From: Vulcanimicrobiota bacterium
GTDB taxonomy: Bacteria > Vulcanimicrobiota > Vulcanimicrobiia > Vulcanimicrobiales > Vulcanimicrobiaceae
Assembly (NCBI GenBank): GCA_963723515.1
Contig: CAVRQT010000003.1
Span: forward strand, 992,001-1,056,000
DNA: 64,000 nt
Direction of reading: 5' to 3'
In this document: in pieces, positions 27,341-55,618 of the stretch
Layout of the letters: the number at the start of each line of letters is the position of its first letter
Numbering within the stretch: the first letter of the stretch is position 1
Program-made: the position numbers and the translations under genes
Notes under the pieces: generated by a model
What the model saw: only the letters and a program-made list of their open reading frames with translations
The model's database searches: none
Told to the model about the DNA's origin: nothing

Positions 27341-27853
27341 GCTTGTCACGCTGCATGACCGTGCTGAGCCTGTCGAAGCATCGAAGGGCTTGATCGAAGC
27401 ACCGCGATGCTGCGATAGTCCCGTGTCACATTGAGCTTGTCGAATTGCGCCAGCCATGCTTCGCGCGCGCATGACACTGTCACGCTGAGCTTGTCGATAG
27501 TCGCTCTCGACTGACCGACGCGTTTTCTGTGTCACCTGAGCTGTCGAAGCGCCGCGATGACCGCGCGTTTTCTCTGTCACGCTGAGCTTGTCGAAGCGCC
27601 AGCGACATCGCGACTGTTGCGATAGTCCCAGTGTCACATTGAGCTTGTCGAAATGTGACGTTGCTTCCCAGCCATGCTTCGACAAGCTCAGCATGACACT
27701 GGGACAACCGTAAAGTATTACGATTACGGTTGCGCTTCGCGAAGCTCAGCATGACACCGGGACAACCGTAAATTATTACGATTACGGTTGCCCTTCGACA
27801 AGCTCAGGGTGACAGAGTGAGCTCAGGGTGACAGAGTGAGCTCAGGGTGACAC
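27330..27853. repeat. Large REP-like array: about 7 forward copies, then inverted copies and tandem half-copies
   Basis: TGTCAnnnTGAGCTTGTCGAAnnn units at about 27330, 27424, 27478, 27530, 27575 and 27632; inverted at about 27675, 27733 and 27791; three GAGCTCAGGGTGACAGAGT-type units. Confidence 0.88.
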
Positions 27854-28460: not shown

Positions 28461-28471
28461 GATAGCGGTGG

Positions 28472-28550
28472 CGCTTCGACAAGCTCAGCGTGACACAGCG
28501 CTCAGCGTGACACACACTGCTCAGGGTGACAGAGCGTACTCAGCGTGACA
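28472..28550 (-). repeat. REP copy followed by three tandem half-REP units
   Basis: GCGCTTCGACAAGCTCAGCGTGACA then CTCAG(C/G)GTGACA three times. Confidence 0.8.
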
Positions 28551-42613: not shown

Positions 42614-43622
42614 TTACGCCGAGCCTGGTTTGGCTTGCACGCTTGGCCGGCTTGAGAGCCCTGCGAGCTCGGCCGTTAACATCTCGACAAGCAATCGCTG
42701 GTCGTCGATCTTGCCGGTGACGAGCGCTTCAAAGGCTCGCACGGCGCGCTCATATGCATTTCTGCGCGCGACGCTCACCGACGCGCGCCGCAACCGGACG
42801 CAAAAACCGTTCGCGCCACTTTGCACGCGGCGGCAGCGTGCCTCCCGGTCGAGCCAATTCCCACAGCAAGCTCAATTCAGTCGCCAGCGCTGCAATCAAC
42901 GGCACACCGGCCTTGCGCGGATCCTGTTCGAAGAGATCCGTTGCGATCTCGAAGCGCCGCATCGACGTTGCCCTCGACGAGCGCGCTCGCATATTTGTAC
43001 GCCTTCGGATCCTCAACCGCGAGGCTCTCCCGCTCCAGATCCGCATACGAGATTTTCTTGTGCGTCAAAGCGAGCTTTTCAAGATCGTTGCGAATTGCGG
43101 CGAGCTCCGCCGTCGCTGAGGAAAGCTGATCGATAACGCGCGCTTCCGCTTTGACGCCCGAGCGTCTCGAGCAGCTCTTCGAATGTAGCGCTCGCGCACC
43201 GGAGCATTCGCCGTCGTGTCGATACGCAGAGCATTGCGGCCCGCCAAAACGCCAAAGGGTTCCGGCCGTTTCGCGCGCGGCGAGAGCAGATCGCAAAGCA
43301 CCAGCGTGTTCCCCTCGGGCGTCTGCTCGGCGACCTCCCACAACTCTCGACGTAACGGCGTCTTCATCGTTTGCGCGTCGGTCACGACAATCACGCGCCG
43401 GTCGGCCAAGAACGGCATCGCGCTCACCGCCTCAGCGATGCGCGCCGTATCTTCGATCTCGGGGCCGTGAAAGCGGTCGACGTTTAGCGCTCGCGCCTCG
43501 GCCGGCAGCGCGCGATCGAGCAGAAGTTCCAAGGCGCGTTCGGCCAACGTGCGTTCCGTGCCCTCGATGATGACGAGCTTTGCGAGCTTCGGGGCCTTGT
43601 CGATGAACTCGTAGTACTTCAT
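42614..43622 (-). CDS. holA: DNA polymerase III delta subunit (frameshifted)
   Basis: [20 protein letters not shown] and NDLEKL motifs. Confidence 0.75.
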
Positions 43623-44623
43623 GCGAACGCTGCGACGCTGGGGCGATTCGCGAGATCGCGGAATTGATTCCGAGTATGGCGGTTGCAGAATTCCGTATTC
43701 GGTGATGAAGGCCGTAATCAATCGCGCCGGCGTCACGTCGAACGCCGGATTGTAGGCGCGCGTACCGCTGTCCGTGCTCGAGGCGCCCGCGAAGGTGCGA
43801 ACTTCATCGCCGCTGCGCTCTTCGATCGGAATCTTCGCGCCGCTTTCCAGCGTCAAGTCGAACGACGAGCGTGGCGCGGCAACATAAAACGGAATGCCGT
43901 GATGCGCGGCCGCGATTGCGAGCCCATAGGTGCCAATCTTATTTGCCGTATCGCCATTGCGCGCGATGCGATCGGCGCCGACGATGACGAGGTCAACGTT
44001 TTTTTGCTGCATCGTGACGGCTGCCGCACTGTCAACGATCAGCGTCGCATCGATTCCGGCGTGCTTTGAGCTCATACATCGTTAGGCGAGCGCCTTGCAG
44101 CAGCGGTCGCGTTTCGCAGGCGTAGACCTGCAAGATTCTTGTGAATCTTGCCGCGGCAATAATCGCGCCCAGCGCCGTTCCGCCGCCGGCGGTTGCGATT
44201 GGGCCGGTATTGCAATGCGTCAAGACGCGCGACACGCCTGAAAAGATGGGCAACGCCGCTTCCGCGATCAGGCGGTCGATCGCGCGCTGCTCCTCGTGGA
44301 TCGCATCTGCCTCGGCCAACATATCTTGCGCAGCGCAGTACCCGATCCACGGCCCAACTCAAATTCACGGCCGTCGGCCGCGCGATGCGAATGCGCTGCA
44401 CTGCGGCATTGAACTGATCGTCGTCTGTGATGTTCCGGCGCAACAGCACAACCGCATAAGCGCCGAAAACACCGAGCGCGGGCGCGCCACGAATTGCCAA
44501 GCTCTTGATCGCCGACTCGAACTCGTCAACGGTCTGCGCGCGAACGACGACCGTTTCGTGCGGCAAGCGACGCTGATCGAGATATTCGATCGCATCGCCT
44601 GCCCAACGTAACGCTTCCTTCAC
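43619..44623 (-). CDS. mtnA: S-methyl-5-thioribose-1-phosphate isomerase (frameshifted)
   Basis: [57 protein letters not shown] and NPAFDVTP. Confidence 0.93.
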
Positions 44624-45084
44624 GCCGGAATTTGCAAGACGCTCGCGGCGGCCATCGCGCGCAGCATAGCCTTTGTTGCCGCGTTTCGGATCGGCACGCT
44701 CCGCGGCTTGTTCGTACGTATTCGGTCGTGAGAATGCCGAAGCCGATTGGACGTCCGGTTTCCAACTGCACGTTCATCAGCCCGCGCGCACATTCGGCCG
44801 CGATGTACTCAAAATGCGGCGTCTGGCCGCGAATGACGGCGCCGAGCGCGACAAGGCCATCGCAGCCGCCCGCGAGCGATAACGCGCGCGGCTGCGATCG
44901 GCAGTTCAAAGCATCCGGCGACGTCGTAGGTCGTGACGTGTCTCGATGCCGCGCCGCACTCGTGCAGTGCAGCCTTCGCGCCTTCCAAGAGCTGATCCGC
45001 AAGATCCGGATAAAAGCGTGCGCAGACGACCGCAATGCGCTTTCCGCGAAGACTGTAGCGCTGCTGCTGTGCAGCATGCTTCAC
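44620..45084 (-). CDS. ribH: 6,7-dimethyl-8-ribityllumazine synthase (frameshifted)
   Basis: RIAVVCARF, VAGCFELP and ALGAVIRGQTPHFEYI. Confidence 0.9.
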
Positions 45085-46491
45085 TGCGAGACGGCTTCCG
45101 CCGAGAAGAGATGTCCTAACTTCGAACGTTTGGTTTCGATGTAACCGGAGTTAAACGCAGTCGGCGGCGGTTTGAATCGGGACGCGGTCGATGATGCGCA
45201 AGCCATAGCCCTCCAATCCGAAAATCTTCTTCGGGTTGTTCGTCATCACGCGCATTTCGCGAACGCCAAGATCGAAGAGAATCTGGGAGCCGATTCCGTA
45301 GTCGCGTTTGTCAATGGGAAGTCCGAGCGCCACGTTGGCCTCGACGGTGTCCATGCCGCGATCTTGCAATTCATAGGCGCGCAGCTTGTTGGCAAGGCCG
45401 ATGCCGCGTCCTTCTTGGTGCAGGTAGAGAAAGACGCCGCGCCCTTCCTCGGCGATCATGGCCAGCGCGCCGTCGCGTTGTGCGGCGCAGTCGCAGCGGA
45501 TTGAATGCAACGCATCGCCGGTGAGACATTCGGAATGCACGCGAACGAGGATATTCTTGCCGTCGCCGATCTCGCCCATAATCGCCGCCACGTGGGTCAA
45601 GCCGTCGATCGCGCTTTCGTACGCAACGCCTTGAAAACTGCCGAACGTCGTCGGCAATGCGAAATCTGCAATGCGCTGCACGAGCTTTTCATTACGCATG
45701 CGATAGGCGATCAAATCTTTGACGGTGATGAGGCGCAGATGATGGTTCTTTGCAAAGACGCGCAGCTTGTCGAGACGCGCCATCGTGCCGTCATCCGCCA
45801 TGATTTCGCAGATCACGCCGGCGGGATAGAGGCCGGCAAGTCGAGCGAGATCAACGGCGGCTTCAGTTTGTCCCGCGCGCACGAGCACGCCGCCGTCGCG
45901 GGCTCGCAACGGAAATGTGTGGCCCGGCCGCAAGAAATCGGCTGGACGTGCATTCGGATCGATGAGCGCGGAAATCGTCGCGGCGCGATCGTAGGCCGAG
46001 ATACCGGTCGTCGTTCGGCCACGCGCTTCAACGGAGATCGTGAACGCCGTTTCATGGACGGCGGTGTTTTCGGAAACCATCTGCGGCAGCTGCAGCTCCT
46101 CGAGCCGCTTGCCGGTCATCGGGACGCAAATCAGGCCGCCGGCTTCTTTGCGCATGAAGTTGATCGCTTCGGGCGTGACCATCTGCGCAGCCATGACGAG
46201 ATCGCCTTCGTTTTCGCGATCCTCGTCATCGAGCACGACGACCATCTTGCCGTCGCGGATATCTTTGATAGCAGAGTCGATCGTGTCGAATGCCGATGCG
46301 TCCGGTGGCTTCGCTAAGTCGGGCAGCACCGTCGAAAGGCGCTGCAGCGAGCGGAACGACGGCTCGCGCTGGCCCGAGCGGAGGTAGGAAATCGCGGATT
46401 CTGTTAAGCCGGAGCGCTCGGCCAGCTCGGCCGCGTTGAGGCCGGCGGCATCCATGGCGGATTTGAGAGCGTCAGCGAAGGTGAGCGGCAC
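45081..46491 (-). CDS. ribBA: XRE-family HTH fused to DHBP synthase / GTP cyclohydrolase II (C-terminal frameshift near 45165)
   Basis: N-terminal AELAERSGLTESAISYLRSGQREPS; DDEDRENEGD, RVHSECLTGD, QEGRGIGL and MTNNPKK. Confidence 0.93.
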
Positions 46492-46499
46492 GGAAATTT

Positions 46500-46528
46500 A
46501 GCGTAGGACGCGACTTAACAGATGTCAA
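46500..46528 (-). promoter_or_regulatory. Sigma70-type promoter of HTH-ribBA with a palindrome over the -35
   Basis: Minus strand TTGACA-N17-TACGCT, 8 nt before the GTG start; TTAACA-GA-TGTCAA imperfect inverted repeat at 46515-46528. Confidence 0.65.
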
Positions 46529-46560
46529 CTACCTAGGTGTGACGTGAGCCACGCACCTTC

Positions 46561-46584
46561 TGTCACGCTGAGCTTGTCGAAGCG
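46561..46584 (+). repeat. Single REP-like hairpin copy
   Basis: TGTCACGCTGAGCTTGTCGAAGCG. Confidence 0.85.
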
Positions 46585-46595
46585 CCACCGCCGAT

Positions 46596-46624
46596 ATGAA
46601 AGAGCCGCCCGTTAAGGGCGGCTC
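46596..46624 (-). terminator. Intrinsic terminator
   Basis: Minus strand GAGCCGCCC-TTAAC-GGGCGGCTC (9-bp perfect stem) followed by TTTCAT. Confidence 0.7.
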
Positions 46625-46652
46625 ACGCTGCTGGTAGCAGTAGCACCGTCTT
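46596..46652 (-). ncRNA. Putative ~55-nt sRNA antisense to the adjacent tRNA-like RNA
   Basis: Extended -10 TG-G-TATGAT (TATGAT at 46657-46662), then GACGGTGCTACTGCTACCAGCAG complementary to the tRNA-like D-arm and anticodon, then the terminator. Confidence 0.5.
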
Positions 46653-46680
46653 GACTATCATACCACAGCGGAGCCGCGGT

Positions 46681-46748
46681 TGGAGGTTACGGGAATCGAA
46701 CCCGCCAGCCGGCATTGACGGTGCTACTGCTGCACCAGCAGAACCCCC
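46681..46748 (-). tRNA. Non-canonical compact tRNA-like gene (68 nt; G3:U70/A73; GTC at the anticodon position)
   Basis: GGGGGTT/AACCTCC-A acceptor stem; GCGGG-TTCGATT-CCCGT T-arm; TGCT-GGTGC-AGCA D-arm; TAGCA-CCGTCAA-TGCCG anticodon arm with one mismatch. Confidence 0.65.
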
Positions 46749-46899
46749 GACTGTTCAATCACGGCCCAACCGACGCTGCCAAGTGGCGTAACGATTCACA
46801 TGATCTGCGTGGCGTGACAGTCACGCGCCTCTCCTACGGCCTGGGCGCTGCTCGGGACAAGCGCAAAGCGTAGCGTGACGCAGTAGCAAACATCGCCCA

Positions 46900-48091
46900 A
46901 TGACCACGTTGCTGCAGCGATGGAGATGGCGGCCGGCAGTCGTCATCTATGGCGCCGGCATGCTGCAGGGCTTTGCCTTCACGCTCGTGCCGGCGTTGGC
47001 AACGGTCTTCGCGGCGGCGCCGTATCACATCAATTCACGCGGCTTCGGCATTCTTTTCATTCCGCTGACCGTCGGCGCAATTATCGGCGCTGCCTTAACG
47101 CCGAAACTCGCGGCGAAAACCGACACTGTAACGGTATTGCGCGCCGGCGTTGCTGCCAACATCGCCGCGCTTGGTCGCGCTTCTGATCGCCTCCACGAAC
47201 GCCCGGCAGCGCTGCTTATGTCTTGCTGCTCGTTGATACAACCGCGCTTGGCCTCGGCTTCGGCCTCAATTTCTCGGCGGTCAACGAGCTTGCATCAAAG
47301 CTCTCAGCCAACGAAACGGCTTCCGTCACGATCGCCAACGTTCTCACCGGCCTCGGAACGAGCTTGACGCCGATTATTCTCGGCGCATTTATCGTCCGTT
47401 ACGCGTGGTGGCTATGGCCGGCGCTGCTGTTGATCGCGTTCGCTGCTGTGCTCGTGCTCTCGTCGCGCTGGCGCGAAGCTCGATCGTCTTCAATCGTTCG
47501 TGCGCGCGGCGTTTCACGAACGCTCGATCTTGTTCGGCGTCGCCGCGCTGCTCTACGCGTTTTGCGAAGGAACGTTTTCGAGTTGGGCAACGACGTTTGC
47601 GCACCTCGATCGCGGTTTCTCGCTCGCTACGGGAGAGGCGGCGCTCACCGCTTTTTGGCTCGCGCTGACCGTAACACGCTTAGCGCGCCGCATTCGCGAC
47701 GCGCGTTGTGCCGCCGCGCACGGCGTTCGTCATCTTTCCGGTTCTTATCGCTGCGGCGTTCTTCTGCTTGCCGCTCTGGAAAACCGCAACGCTGCTCGTC
47801 GTCGGATTCGCGCTCGGCGGCGTCGCCTGCAGCATCGTCTTCCCATTTGCAATGTCGTTGGCGCTCGATGCGATGCCCACTGATGCCGATCGCGTCGCCG
47901 GCGTTATGGTGGCGGCGCTGATGACGGGCGAAGGGTTCGGAACGTTCCTTGTCGGCGCACTGCACTCTGACGCGCATCTGTCGCTTGCGGCGATCTACCG
48001 CATCGCGGCCGTCGTTGCGTTCGCCTTGGCGATCGTCTCAATGCTTGCCCGAAGCGCCTCTCGCGAAAGTGCGGTGAACGTCAGATCGTAA
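46900..48091 (+). CDS. MFS sugar transporter (frameshifted)
   Basis: Hydrophobic helices over four frames; LLYAFCEGTFSSW and SIVFP motifs resemble FucP-like MFS. Confidence 0.75.
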
Positions 48092-49102
48092 ACGCGGGCC
48101 TGCCCTGGATCGAGAAACGGCAGCATGCGATGCGCTAAGCGCATACTCGCGTCCTTGAATCGCCGCGGTATTGGCCGGCTCGACCGACATCACGTAATCG
48201 CCGAAGTCCAACTTGCGCCACGTAAAGAGCGCGGGCAGCGCGTTTGGATCGAACGCGATTTCAAATCCGAGTCCGGCGCCCTCCAGCAACTCTTCATTGG
48301 ACGATCGCAGCGCGGGCTTTGAGATCGGCGCACTCGCGCGGCTTATGAATAAAGACTTGCTCCGCGAAGCCGGCCTGCGGCTCGCCGCCGCGATCCCACA
48401 CAGATAATCCCGCCTGCGCTTGCGGATCGCGCGGCTCAACGTTCGTATGCGAGACATGAACGCGCGTCTGCGCGTGAGAGCAGCGGAAAGCCGGCGTTGC
48501 AATGGTAGAGGATCATGTGCGGCGTGCGCGTGCCGCCCTCATTGATGACGACGTCGCGCAAATGGAGCGTCGCGCTGCCAAGTTCGGTCTGCCAGCGCCG
48601 ATGCAGCACGAGCTTTTCGCCGAGCGCTTTCGTTTCACGCATCCGTCCCTCGACCTCAAGGATGCAACGATCGCCATCCCAGTACGTCTTCGTCGAGTAG
48701 TTTTCGCGCCGGCAGATTGTTGATGCGGCCGTGCTGCCCAAAGGTTCCCCACTGATCGCTACCCGGCGGCCCAAAATTTGCTAGCCCGCAAGTCGTCAGC
48801 CAACCGCCAAAAAACGAACGCAGCCATTCATCGCCCGCGGCTTCGTAAAACGCCGGCGCCGCGATATCGTTTGCGCTGCGCCAAACGAACGGCGTGCCGC
48901 GATATGCTGCATGCGCAATATCAAGCGCGCGATCGATGACGATCTCGACGGAGAGCACGCCGGTATCGACGCGCACCGCGCGGACGCCGCGGCCGCGACC
49001 GGACGCATACTCAAACTCCGTGATTCCGCCGACCTGCGCCAGCGAACCAACGCGCGCTTGCAGGTCGTCGCGCGTCAGTTTTTCACCGAAGAGTTCTGGC
49101 AC
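47995..49102 (-). CDS. Aldose 1-epimerase family protein (DUF4432; frameshifted)
   Basis: DRALDI, WLRSFFGGWLTTCGL..FG, HGRINN, PHMILYHCNAGFPLL and YVMSVEPAN. Confidence 0.82.
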
Positions 49103-55382: not shown

Positions 55383-55618
55383 GGTCACACTTCGACAAGC
55401 TCAGTGTGACACTGGGACCGCCTCGTACGGCGACACAGTGGCGTCCGCAACGTTTTCGCGGTCCTTCGACAAGCTCAGTGTGACACTGGGACGATCTCGT
55501 TGCGGCAAGATGTGATTGCATCTCGGCAAGTTCAACTCTGTCACGCTGAGCTAGTCGAAGCGCCACCGTAATCGCCGCGTCCAACGGTTTTCGCGGCACT
55601 TCGACAGCGTCAGCGACA
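55383..55618. repeat. REP-like cluster
   Basis: CTTCGACAAGCTCAGTGTGACACTGGGAC twice, plus TGTCACGCTGAGCTAGTCGAAGCG. Confidence 0.85.

Follow-up and report, generated by a model that had tools for sequence, protein, structure and literature searches.

We analysed two adjacent RNA genes on the minus strand of a 64,000-nucleotide (nt) stretch of DNA from a Vulcanimicrobiota bacterium (contig CAVRQT010000003.1), hereafter the window, numbered from its first letter. Together they form a module (46748->46598) that is one of three copies in this genome. The first gene would yield a 68-nt tRNA mimic with an alanine identity set (RNA1, 46681..46748), which scores 74.7 bits with the covariance model R2 described below and is supported by covariation in 96 copies. 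The second is predicted to yield an antisense small RNA (sRNA) of ~53 nt (RNA2, 46598..46651), its start being taken from promoter spacing and its ends predicted. An earlier note on this DNA had singled out the pair at this one locus; across 96 copies gathered from related genomes, we find that the two genes recur together and change in concert.

RNA1 can be drawn as a cloverleaf. Its 7-bp acceptor stem (46748-46742 / 46688-46682) pairs GGGGGTT with AACCTCC and contains a G3:U70 wobble, and is accompanied by a D-like arm (46741-46730), an anticodon-like arm (46729-46706) with the loop CCGTCAA, a canonical T arm (46705-46689) with the loop TTCGATT, and a discriminator A (46681). The 68-nt tRNA-like RNA of the earlier note is therefore present at 46748->46681, with a likeness to tRNA that is limited to the acceptor stem, the T arm and the general cloverleaf. 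A predicted promoter, P1, lies in front of it, with a -35-like hexamer TTGGCA (46777..46782), a consensus match only, and a -10-like hexamer GATTGA (46755..46760) separated by 16 nt from the -35 and by 6 nt from the first nucleotide of RNA1. The sequences flanking RNA1 at 46663-46683 and 46766-46786 are 71% complementary over 21 nt, which may reflect a leader–trailer helix or chance.

The second gene opens with an extended -10 element, TGGTATGAT (46657..46665), of the TGnTAnnnT class, which is the predicted promoter of RNA2 (P2). Read directly from the sequence, TATGAT lies at 46662->46657 with TGG before it, giving the TGnTATGAT extended -10 that had been claimed; the P2 -35 of this copy is weak (CTCCAA). 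A 23-mer, X' (46650->46628), starts 6 nt past the -10, at the position first reported for it. It is the reverse complement of RNA1 nt 8-32 (target segment X, 46717..46741, read 46741->46717) save for a 2-nt bulge, as the sequence confirms. Segment X spans the D-like arm, the 5' strand of the anticodon-like stem and loop bases 1-5. After X' come a 3-nt linker, a 9-bp GC terminator hairpin (46624->46602) and TTTC (46601-46598), the latter two recovered by a terminator scan. No open reading frame (ORF) of at least 40 aa lies on the module strand inside the module and the flanking ORFs scanned across the family include no partner protein, in agreement with the earlier view that no protein-coding gene belongs to it.

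The complementarity of the two arms is far above chance. A repeat search returned an inverted repeat with a 15-nt, 100% complementary core and arms 66 nt apart; its 14-mer core occurs at just these two sites in the 64-kb window (0/100 shuffles), and neither arm has a second match in the 2.1-Mb genome, even when up to 4 errors are tolerated. The 165-nt stretch folds as one long hairpin at -85.5 kcal/mol, compared with -60.0 +/- 4.5 for shuffled sequences (z -5.7), and the fold of the RNA1 68-mer by itself is not unusual (z -1.4).

Coupling and covariation of the two RNA genes

Homologues were found by a blastn search with 265 nt of the locus against 400 genomes of the phylum. One genome (G184) matched over the entire module with 71% identity (E 2.8e-10), and several other matches cover the tRNA-like part. 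Homologous loci share a common layout, consisting of the tRNA-like gene, a spacer, TGnTAnnnT, a complementary segment, and a hairpin followed by a T run, and the complementary bases change from genome to genome. We built a covariance model (R1) from 4 ungapped copies, realigned 20 copies with it and rebuilt the model as R2, which gave 89 matches of at least 49 bits in 53 of 151 family genomes by manual count of the result table. Below these lie a few intermediate matches and then a cluster at 41-43 bits, which we took as ordinary tRNAs. The resulting set of 96 copies includes three loci flagged unpublished (L139, L169 and L178), and genomes so flagged also enter some tallies (blastn, R2, ribBA upstream regions and the dispersed repeat); leaving them out would change no conclusion.

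RNA1 is followed by a complementary segment in 95/96 copies, the exception being a damaged 91-nt copy. X' is encoded on the strand of RNA1, with a median spacing of 50 nt (13-87) between the two. Pairing between the two RNAs covers 22-29 nt (median 25 pairs); it begins near RNA1 nt 8, takes in the D-like arm and the 5' side of the anticodon-like stem, and includes the loop in full. We measured covariation of this helix on a MAFFT alignment (A7) of 62 complete modules of the 72-nt class, unfitted to any structure. A helix of 14 pairs was picked from A7 by pairing fraction, a choice that biases the paired-cell percentage upward; 89.7% of 866 cells were paired, and 13/14 pairs showed double changes. 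Cells with double changes numbered 179, compared with 52.0 +/- 5.6 in shuffles. None of 500 shuffles matched the observed values in 4/5 measures, and 7/500 did so for the count of pairs with a double change. Slid controls were 24-36% paired, with a covariation score of 0.04-0.14 compared with 0.584 observed. X' thus changes with RNA1 and stays complementary to it, the behaviour by which the proposed pairing was to be judged.

The pairing is also specific. Over a variable 18-nt segment, the cognate partner ranked best of 96 in 75 cases, among the top 3 in 89 and among the top 10 in 94, with a mean pairing energy of -25.5 kcal/mol for cognate pairs compared with -12.4 +/- 4.1 for non-cognate ones. 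The three modules of this genome are orthogonal to one another (-20.6 to -28.6 for cognate pairs, compared with -7.7 to -13.2 for crossed ones). The predicted heterodimer of RNA1 and RNA2 from the window is 15.1 kcal/mol more stable than the separate RNAs, a gain that ranges over 15-29 in four modules.

RNA1 itself is conserved as a fold. We aligned the 96 copies to R2 (alignment A6), a fitting to the model that favours its structure; 94.5% of 2264 cells were paired and 20/24 pairs had changes on both sides. No measure was reached by any of 500 shuffles, and slid controls were 37-55% paired. Covariation is seen in all four helices, including 4/4 pairs of the D-like stem and 8/8 of the anticodon-like stem. 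Lengths range over 68-72 nt, with 72 nt in 68 copies and 68 nt in 10, the window copy among them.

Conserved signals indicate that X' belongs to a separately promoted and terminated gene, as had been proposed. A TGnTAnnnT motif ends 0-14 nt before X' in 84/95 modules, and 5-7 nt before it in 62 of these 84; from its background frequency in the same loci, 0.007 would be expected in each such interval. Of the 84, 79 also have a -35-like hexamer at a spacing of 16-18 nt upstream, which is 17 nt in 65. In A7, little or no variation is seen in the columns of TTG, TG, TA and the last T, and the rest of the spacer is variable. A stable fold and a T-rich run follow X' in 91/95, and the terminator hairpin is similar in sequence in many copies. 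Genes downstream of the module differ between loci and are often convergent (in the rlmN-adjacent copies examined), which argues against X' being the leader of a conserved mRNA. RNA2 is best read as an independent sRNA of ~55-65 nt whose 5' end would pair with the RNA1 loop. P1 differs in kind. Across the family, a TTGTCA-like -35 is followed after 16-17 nt by a conserved odd -10 with the consensus G-A-T-n-G-A, ~8-9 nt before +1 (94 upstream regions), which is non-canonical and has its final T missing; GCT directly precedes the RNA1 +1 in most copies. The promoters are therefore asymmetric, with an odd -10 for RNA1 and a near-consensus extended -10 for RNA2.

An alanine identity set in a non-standard tRNA-like RNA

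The elements that mark tRNA-Ala are present in nearly every RNA1: G1:C72 in 94/96, G2:C71 in 94/96, G3:U70 in 92/96 and A73 in 95/96, with all four in the window copy. Acceptor pairs 5-7 co-vary freely. An invariant stem top beside freely co-varying pairs is the pattern expected if alanyl-tRNA synthetase (AlaRS) reads the stem top, and we conclude from these alignments that the conserved wobble in an otherwise co-varying helix is an AlaRS identity signature. The rule that G3:U70 specifies alanine is established knowledge and is quoted in the review PMC11415595. The T loop is TTCGATT in 67/96, and the D loop has 4-5 nt, with TGGTG in 50/96. Since RNA1 keeps the alanine determinants, a canonical T loop and a GG-containing D loop, we predict that it is processed, CCA-tailed and alanylated, and it is probably handled in this way like a tRNA.

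The anticodon-like loop is less regular in what it would specify. The GTC anticodon pointed out earlier is indeed found in the window copy and is not conserved in the family, where the triplets are GAT in 46, GTC in 17, GAC in 14, GAG in 5 and GAA in 3 of 96. The 7-nt loops share the consensus C-Y-G-N-Y-A-M; among 91 such loops, G34 occurs in 87, A37 in 81, U33 in 57 and C33 in 34. The conservation of G34 and A37 would favour an anticodon-loop-like function.

Standard detectors do not recognize RNA1. ARAGORN reported no tRNA in the window, and Rfam reported nothing there at its gathering thresholds; neither RNA1 nor RNA2 falls in any Rfam family. The Rfam tRNA model (RF00005) gives RNA1 17.7 bits against a cut-off of 29, and its other 43 matches are ordinary tRNA genes of this genome, all with at least 49.5 bits. 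The transfer-messenger RNA (tmRNA) model (RF00023), the sole Rfam model with a significant sub-threshold match to the module, scores it at 21.1 bits (cut-off 47), with an alignment confined to the acceptor stem and T arm, and reaches 28.2 bits on the copy at locus L150. Among relatives, ARAGORN accepts few (2/15 copies in one set) and calls the copy at C2:101828 in this genome tRNA-Ile(gat). This genome has 3 tRNA-Ala genes, normal tRNA-Asp(GTC), tRNA-Val(GAC) and tRNA-Ile(GAT) genes, and a genuine tmRNA (C1:47840-48193; L001 1501-1854) that scores 92.3 bits and differs in sequence from RNA1. Standard tRNA and tmRNA genes are thus present elsewhere, and the module element is an extra gene that is not a standard tRNA. 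The genuine tmRNA was found by Rfam and missed by ARAGORN, and has an odd T-loop region that may stem from assembly errors.

Measured against a canonical elongator tRNA, RNA1 has the cloverleaf with a 7-bp acceptor stem, a 5-bp T stem, the T loop and a GG D loop, and departs from it in detector recognition, the anticodon arm and the variable region. It lacks the pseudoknots and tag reading frame of a tmRNA and measures 68 nt in all. We rejected several further identities. A fragment of the host tmRNA or of a tRNA-Ala gene would not fit sequences that differ outside the shared identity elements. An allo-tRNA needs an 8/4 or 9/3 acceptor/T architecture, and that of RNA1 is 7/5 with covariation support. 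For a Y RNA (YrlA), we found no Ro/Rsr TROVE domain (PF05731) in this 88% complete genome and no Rfam match. A type I small toxic peptide finds no consistent sense ORF in the module: among the 68 copies with a length of 72 nt, start positions of the longest sense ORF are scattered, the commonest shared by 16/68, and 2 copies have none. The compensatory changes found throughout this region are of the kind expected for an RNA.

Distribution and genomic setting

The module family appears, from the genomes sampled, to be confined to a single class of a phylum that is dominated by uncultured members and has been seen almost exclusively in metagenomes. The taxa of one protein cluster suggest that this phylum is Vulcanimicrobiota/Eremiobacterota. 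In an even sample of the phylum searched with R2 at E <= 1e-7, matches occurred in 31/71 genomes of the family of this genome (f1) and in 4/9 of another family of the same class (f3), and in 0/70 genomes of 19 other families, 0/5 further genomes, and 0/151 genomes of each of two other phyla (seed loci titled Armatimonadetes and Acidimicrobiales). These figures come from samples of genomes, and absence here means not found in those searched. An exact 26-base T-arm/acceptor pattern had 0 matches in the genome-contig and viral-contig collections. A degenerate acceptor/T-loop pattern found 64 loci in genome contigs, comprising 62 ordinary tRNA-Ala genes and 2 unrelated odd tRNA-like genes, and a short-length pattern found 6 metagenome loci, all compact tRNA-Ala(TGC) genes; these scans are too narrow because the acceptor sequence was fixed to that of the window copy. 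A D-arm/T-loop pattern of the main subclass had 0 matches in viral contigs, and blastn with one module found no match in the plasmid collection.

Odd alanine-acceptor tRNA-like genes do occur elsewhere, in a Chitinophagales metagenome-assembled genome (MAG; L113, 70 nt), a Bacteroidales MAG (L127, 77 nt) and two metagenome contigs (L133 and L134, 68 nt). One of the four stands alone, is 70 nt long and has no normal anticodon arm, and the rest are compact tRNA-Ala(TGC) genes in tRNA arrays. L113 and L127, both of which were folded, have no obvious complementary sRNA downstream.

The other two modules of this genome lie at C2:835158-835229 (-; L224), with the triplet GAC, and at C2:101829-101900 (+; L225), with the triplet GAT and tail-to-tail with rlmN. 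Two or three modules lie within ~3 kb of each other at eleven loci. A Pfam scan of flanking ORFs, covering the first 95 of 174 references, returned recurrent housekeeping genes, among them Radical SAM proteins (10), acyl-CoA dehydrogenase (7), SucC (5), thioredoxin-like proteins (3) and Dus (2); within those 95 there was no integrase, transposase, reverse transcriptase or toxin/antitoxin (TA) protein and no universal protein neighbour. The Radical SAM neighbours were RlmN in 4/4 checked (L163, L158, L180 and L225). RlmN methylates A37 of tRNAs and A2503 of 23S rRNA. Modules often adjoin genes for tRNA-modifying enzymes: rlmN at L158, L161, L163, L171, L173, L180, L187, L192, L195, L196 and L225, dus at L166 and L194, and truA at L138; the rlmN-adjacent modules that were checked are convergent with it. 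This adjacency may be no more than synteny or may hint at a function.

The window is core chromosome, with genes of purine, riboflavin and lysine biosynthesis and no integrase or phage gene. The module sits between a divergent MFS transporter gene and ribBA, an interval that measures ~90 nt from start to start in a genome of the same genus (G001), which has no module there; ~320 nt (46853->46533) are therefore specific to this genome, as an insertion at about 46533..46853. Inside this insertion and directly 3' of the module, yet outside it, is a dispersed repeat resembling repetitive extragenic palindromic (REP) elements (46560..46591, minus strand). The ~30-nt repeat has ~98 further blastn matches in this genome, including window positions 27574-27604, 28465-28495 and 55538-55568, and many copies in G001, G025 and G006, the last with long tandem arrays at 27-nt spacing. 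We rejected a dispersed repeat or miniature inverted-repeat transposable element as the identity of the module, as its arms and T arm are unique in the genome and the repeated part is the 30-nt REP-like piece after the terminator. A prophage or island attachment remnant was likewise rejected, with biosynthesis genes around and no integrase in the window, as was a conserved ribBA leader, since 0/28 other ribBA upstream regions have the T-loop motif or a tRNA call.

Several genes of the window are split into overlapping frames (43065-44623, 44526-45084, 46900-48091 and 48038-49102; mtnA-like, ribH, MFS transporter and DUF4432), which reflects either indel errors in the 4-contig assembly or a pseudogene-rich genome. 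RibBA (45151-46491, minus strand) has an N-terminal HTH_3 domain of ~65 aa, an extension that aligns in most family- and order-level genomes searched. A palindromic TTGACAnnTGTnAA (46515-46528, minus strand) lies 29-38 nt before the start codon in 19/30 ribBA upstream regions, and the window contains no Rfam riboswitch. This arrangement suggests that ribBA is autoregulated and nearly leaderless, in place of control by a flavin mononucleotide riboswitch.

Proposed mechanism, rival explanations and known systems

We place slightly better than even confidence in a reading in which RNA1 is an alanine-accepting tRNA mimic that RNA2 unfolds or destroys, the two acting as an RNA-only toxin/antitoxin or gate. 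RNA1 would fold as a cloverleaf, mature and be alanylated. RNA2 would be transcribed from a strong sigma-70-type promoter ~50 nt downstream and end at an intrinsic terminator, and its single-stranded 5' end would nucleate on the anticodon-like loop of RNA1 and zip through the stem and the D-like arm. Pairing would unfold the cloverleaf, with loss of the tRNA-shaped function, and the long RNA1:RNA2 duplex would be open to cleavage by RNase III, an enzyme encoded in this genome. Every copy has a private orthogonal partner, as in multi-copy type I TA families. Free RNA1 would be harmful or need tight gating, as a competitor in translation, a mis-decoder, or a sink for AlaRS or EF-Tu, and RNA2 would be its antitoxin or gate. 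The private partners, tandem copies, promoter asymmetry and possible fold-back precursor recall type I TA, which fits an RNA1 that is harmful when free. Base-pairing of antitoxin with toxin, the hallmark looked for in a type VIII system, is reflected in the complementarity, covariation and specificity reported above and would be expected in vivo.

Several observations weigh against this reading. The anticodon-like stem is irregular, with 8 positions, a bulge and two pairs that fail to form in 47 and 42 of the 95 rows; C33 replaces U33 in 34/91 loops; and the variable region is nearly absent, with 0-2 nt separating the anticodon-like arm from the T arm. It is therefore doubtful that RNA1 decodes efficiently. 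The module is dispensable, as about two-thirds of the searched family genomes have no strong R2 match. Its copies occupy conserved chromosomal sites, for instance beside rlmN or in the interval from an acyl-CoA dehydrogenase gene to sucC, unlike classical TA modules, and none was found in plasmids or viral contigs with one query per collection. No terminator lies between RNA1 and RNA2, and control could be partly or wholly intramolecular. Finally, the assembly with its many split genes makes single-base details of the window copy less secure, and the 2-nt bulge is less certain there for that reason; the same bulge is present in G184.

One elaboration, which we regard as possible but doubtful, is that the modules encode antisense-gated mis-decoding tRNAs, such that on depletion of the sRNA each RNA1, alanylated through G3:U70, would place alanine at Ile, Asp, Val, Leu or Phe codons. 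G34 (87/91) and A37 (81/91) are kept although RNA2 could pair with any loop sequence. If true, this would be a switch for proteome-wide alanine substitution, serving as an RNA-only TA under stress or phage attack or as programmed mistranslation.

It is unlikely, in our estimate, that the two transcripts are instead the halves of a single functional RNA, a heteroduplex active as an alanine-accepting minihelix joined to a rigid 25-bp helix and a hairpin, and serving in ribosome rescue or alanyl transfer. Such an RNA would resemble the tRNA-like domain and helix P2 of tmRNA, assembled from two transcripts. The tmRNA model is the sole sub-threshold Rfam match and aligns the acceptor stem and T arm, the very parts that lie outside the RNA2-bound segment, so that a charged minihelix could survive pairing; and the linkage of RNA1 to RNA2 is obligatory (95/96), as for parts of one machine. 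Yet the RNA1 cloverleaf is itself selected, with co-variation of 4/4 D-like and 8/8 anticodon-like pairs, and this internal covariation would be pointless were RNA1 always in the duplex. The acceptor stem is also opened in the heterodimers predicted by folding, no messenger part or tag reading frame exists, an ordinary tmRNA (92.3 bits) is already in the genome, and the promoter asymmetry fits a regulator in excess better than subunits at 1:1.

We attach a similarly low probability to control by fold-back in cis alone, in which a P1 precursor reading through X' stays locked until processed, as in hok mRNA, and P2 is minor. The earlier note had raised fold-back of a 3' trailer as its second option. 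Because there is no terminator between the genes, P1 transcripts probably do continue across the 13-87-nt spacer (median 50 nt) as far as the terminator common to both genes, which would put the two arms on one molecule; the 165-nt stretch forms one long hairpin (z -5.7), and covariation looks alike for cis and trans pairing. What argues that fold-back is not the whole story is the promoter of RNA2 itself: a full TTG, 17 nt and TGnTAnnnT stand at a fixed distance from X' within a variable spacer, a selection that would be senseless unless X' were also made as its own RNA. The two modes are compatible, and both this explanation and the two-transcript functional RNA, each of them possible, agree in part with an antisense sRNA acting on a tRNA mimic.

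We think it very unlikely that RNA2 regulates other targets and that RNA1 is its tRNA-shaped sponge or decoy. Fragments of tRNA spacers sponge sRNAs in E. coli, and RNA2 has the architecture of a trans-acting sRNA, namely a seed at its 5' end followed by a terminator hairpin of similar sequence in many copies. The seed, however, differs between paralogues and genera and tracks its own RNA1. A seed directed at a conserved mRNA would be conserved, so its variability weighs against a sponge, which would also give no reason for RNA1 to keep its alanine identity set and its T and D loops. Least credible is a decayed tRNA-Ala or tmRNA pseudogene whose inverted duplication arose by chance or template switching, an artefact of assembly, the remnant of an attachment site or a type I peptide locus: the window copy does lie in a ~320-nt lineage-specific insertion beside a REP-like repeat, in an assembly with many split genes, and detectors do reject RNA1 as a tRNA, but 96 copies from dozens of independent assemblies keep genes, helices and promoters with compensatory changes, integrase and phage genes were not found nearby and sense ORFs are inconsistent between copies, which on comparative grounds refutes this group as a full explanation.

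Among the closest known systems is type VIII TA, which pairs an RNA toxin with an RNA antitoxin, as in SdsR/RyeA and CreT/CreA. RyeA is transcribed from the strand opposite its partner within one piece of DNA, and the action of CreA is mediated by Cascade. As in these systems, both partners of the module are RNA, no protein takes part and the second RNA is proposed to neutralize the first. In contrast to them, the antisense here is a separate gene on the same strand with an inverted copy of its target, that target is a cloverleaf bearing an identity set for aminoacylation, and toxicity is putative. Ibs/Sib, Ldr/Rdl and hok/sok are multi-copy type I TA repeats. The module resembles them as a small chromosomal unit, often in tandem, in which each copy has its own antisense and loop-first pairing is proposed, in the promoter of the regulator being nearer consensus than that of the target, and in a possible fold-back precursor; unlike theirs, its target is not an mRNA and has no conserved peptide ORF. 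The C4 antisense RNA of phages P1 and P7 is a small structured RNA, said to mature like a tRNA, whose complementary target follows it on one strand. In C4, it is the structured partner that regulates, and what it binds is the leader of an mRNA, whereas the downstream element of the module is a terminated sRNA; no C4-type family gave an Rfam match. With the tRNA-like domain of tmRNA (RF00023), RNA1 shares G3:U70, A73, the GGTTCGA T loop and a minihelix of acceptor stem and T arm, and it differs in having no pseudoknots or tag frame and in measuring 68-72 nt.

Unusual tRNAs form a second group for comparison. Allo-tRNAs are odd tRNAs of soil bacteria, some with G3:U70 and non-alanine anticodons, and PMC5389517 and PMC7609411 discuss them as possible missense suppressors or regulatory RNAs and link some to transposable elements or TA. 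RNA1 likewise combines an alanine identity pair with a non-alanine anticodon triplet in an odd cloverleaf. It differs from the 8/4 or 9/3 architecture given for allo-tRNAs in PMC5389517 by its 7/5 arrangement, tiny D loop and long irregular anticodon-like stem, and the two papers describe no partner sRNA for allo-tRNAs. The tRNA-ProX family of Streptomyces comprises encoded mistranslating tRNAs (PMC10404621; review PMC11415595). These too are extra tRNA genes in which acceptor identity and anticodon are mismatched; unlike RNA1, they are otherwise canonical, some have a dedicated synthetase, and PMC11415595 mentions no dedicated antisense RNA. The word 'antisense' is absent from the main texts of PMC11415595, PMC5389517 and PMC7609411, and full-text literature searches found no system in which an aminoacylatable tRNA mimic has a dedicated antisense sRNA gene.

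The recurrence of this protein-free pair points to an undescribed way of gating a tRNA look-alike. Were the proposed mechanism true, it would add a new class of RNA-only control module, and possibly the first tRNA-shaped RNA toxin or natural mistranslation switch. It would also allow two short transcripts to be used to study the role of non-decoding tRNA look-alikes in bacteria and the disassembly of a folded tRNA by an antisense RNA. Annotation miscalls or misses such genes, as with the copy here that ARAGORN labelled tRNA-Ile, and this genome alone holds three members of what amounts to a set of small orthogonal RNA–RNA pairs.

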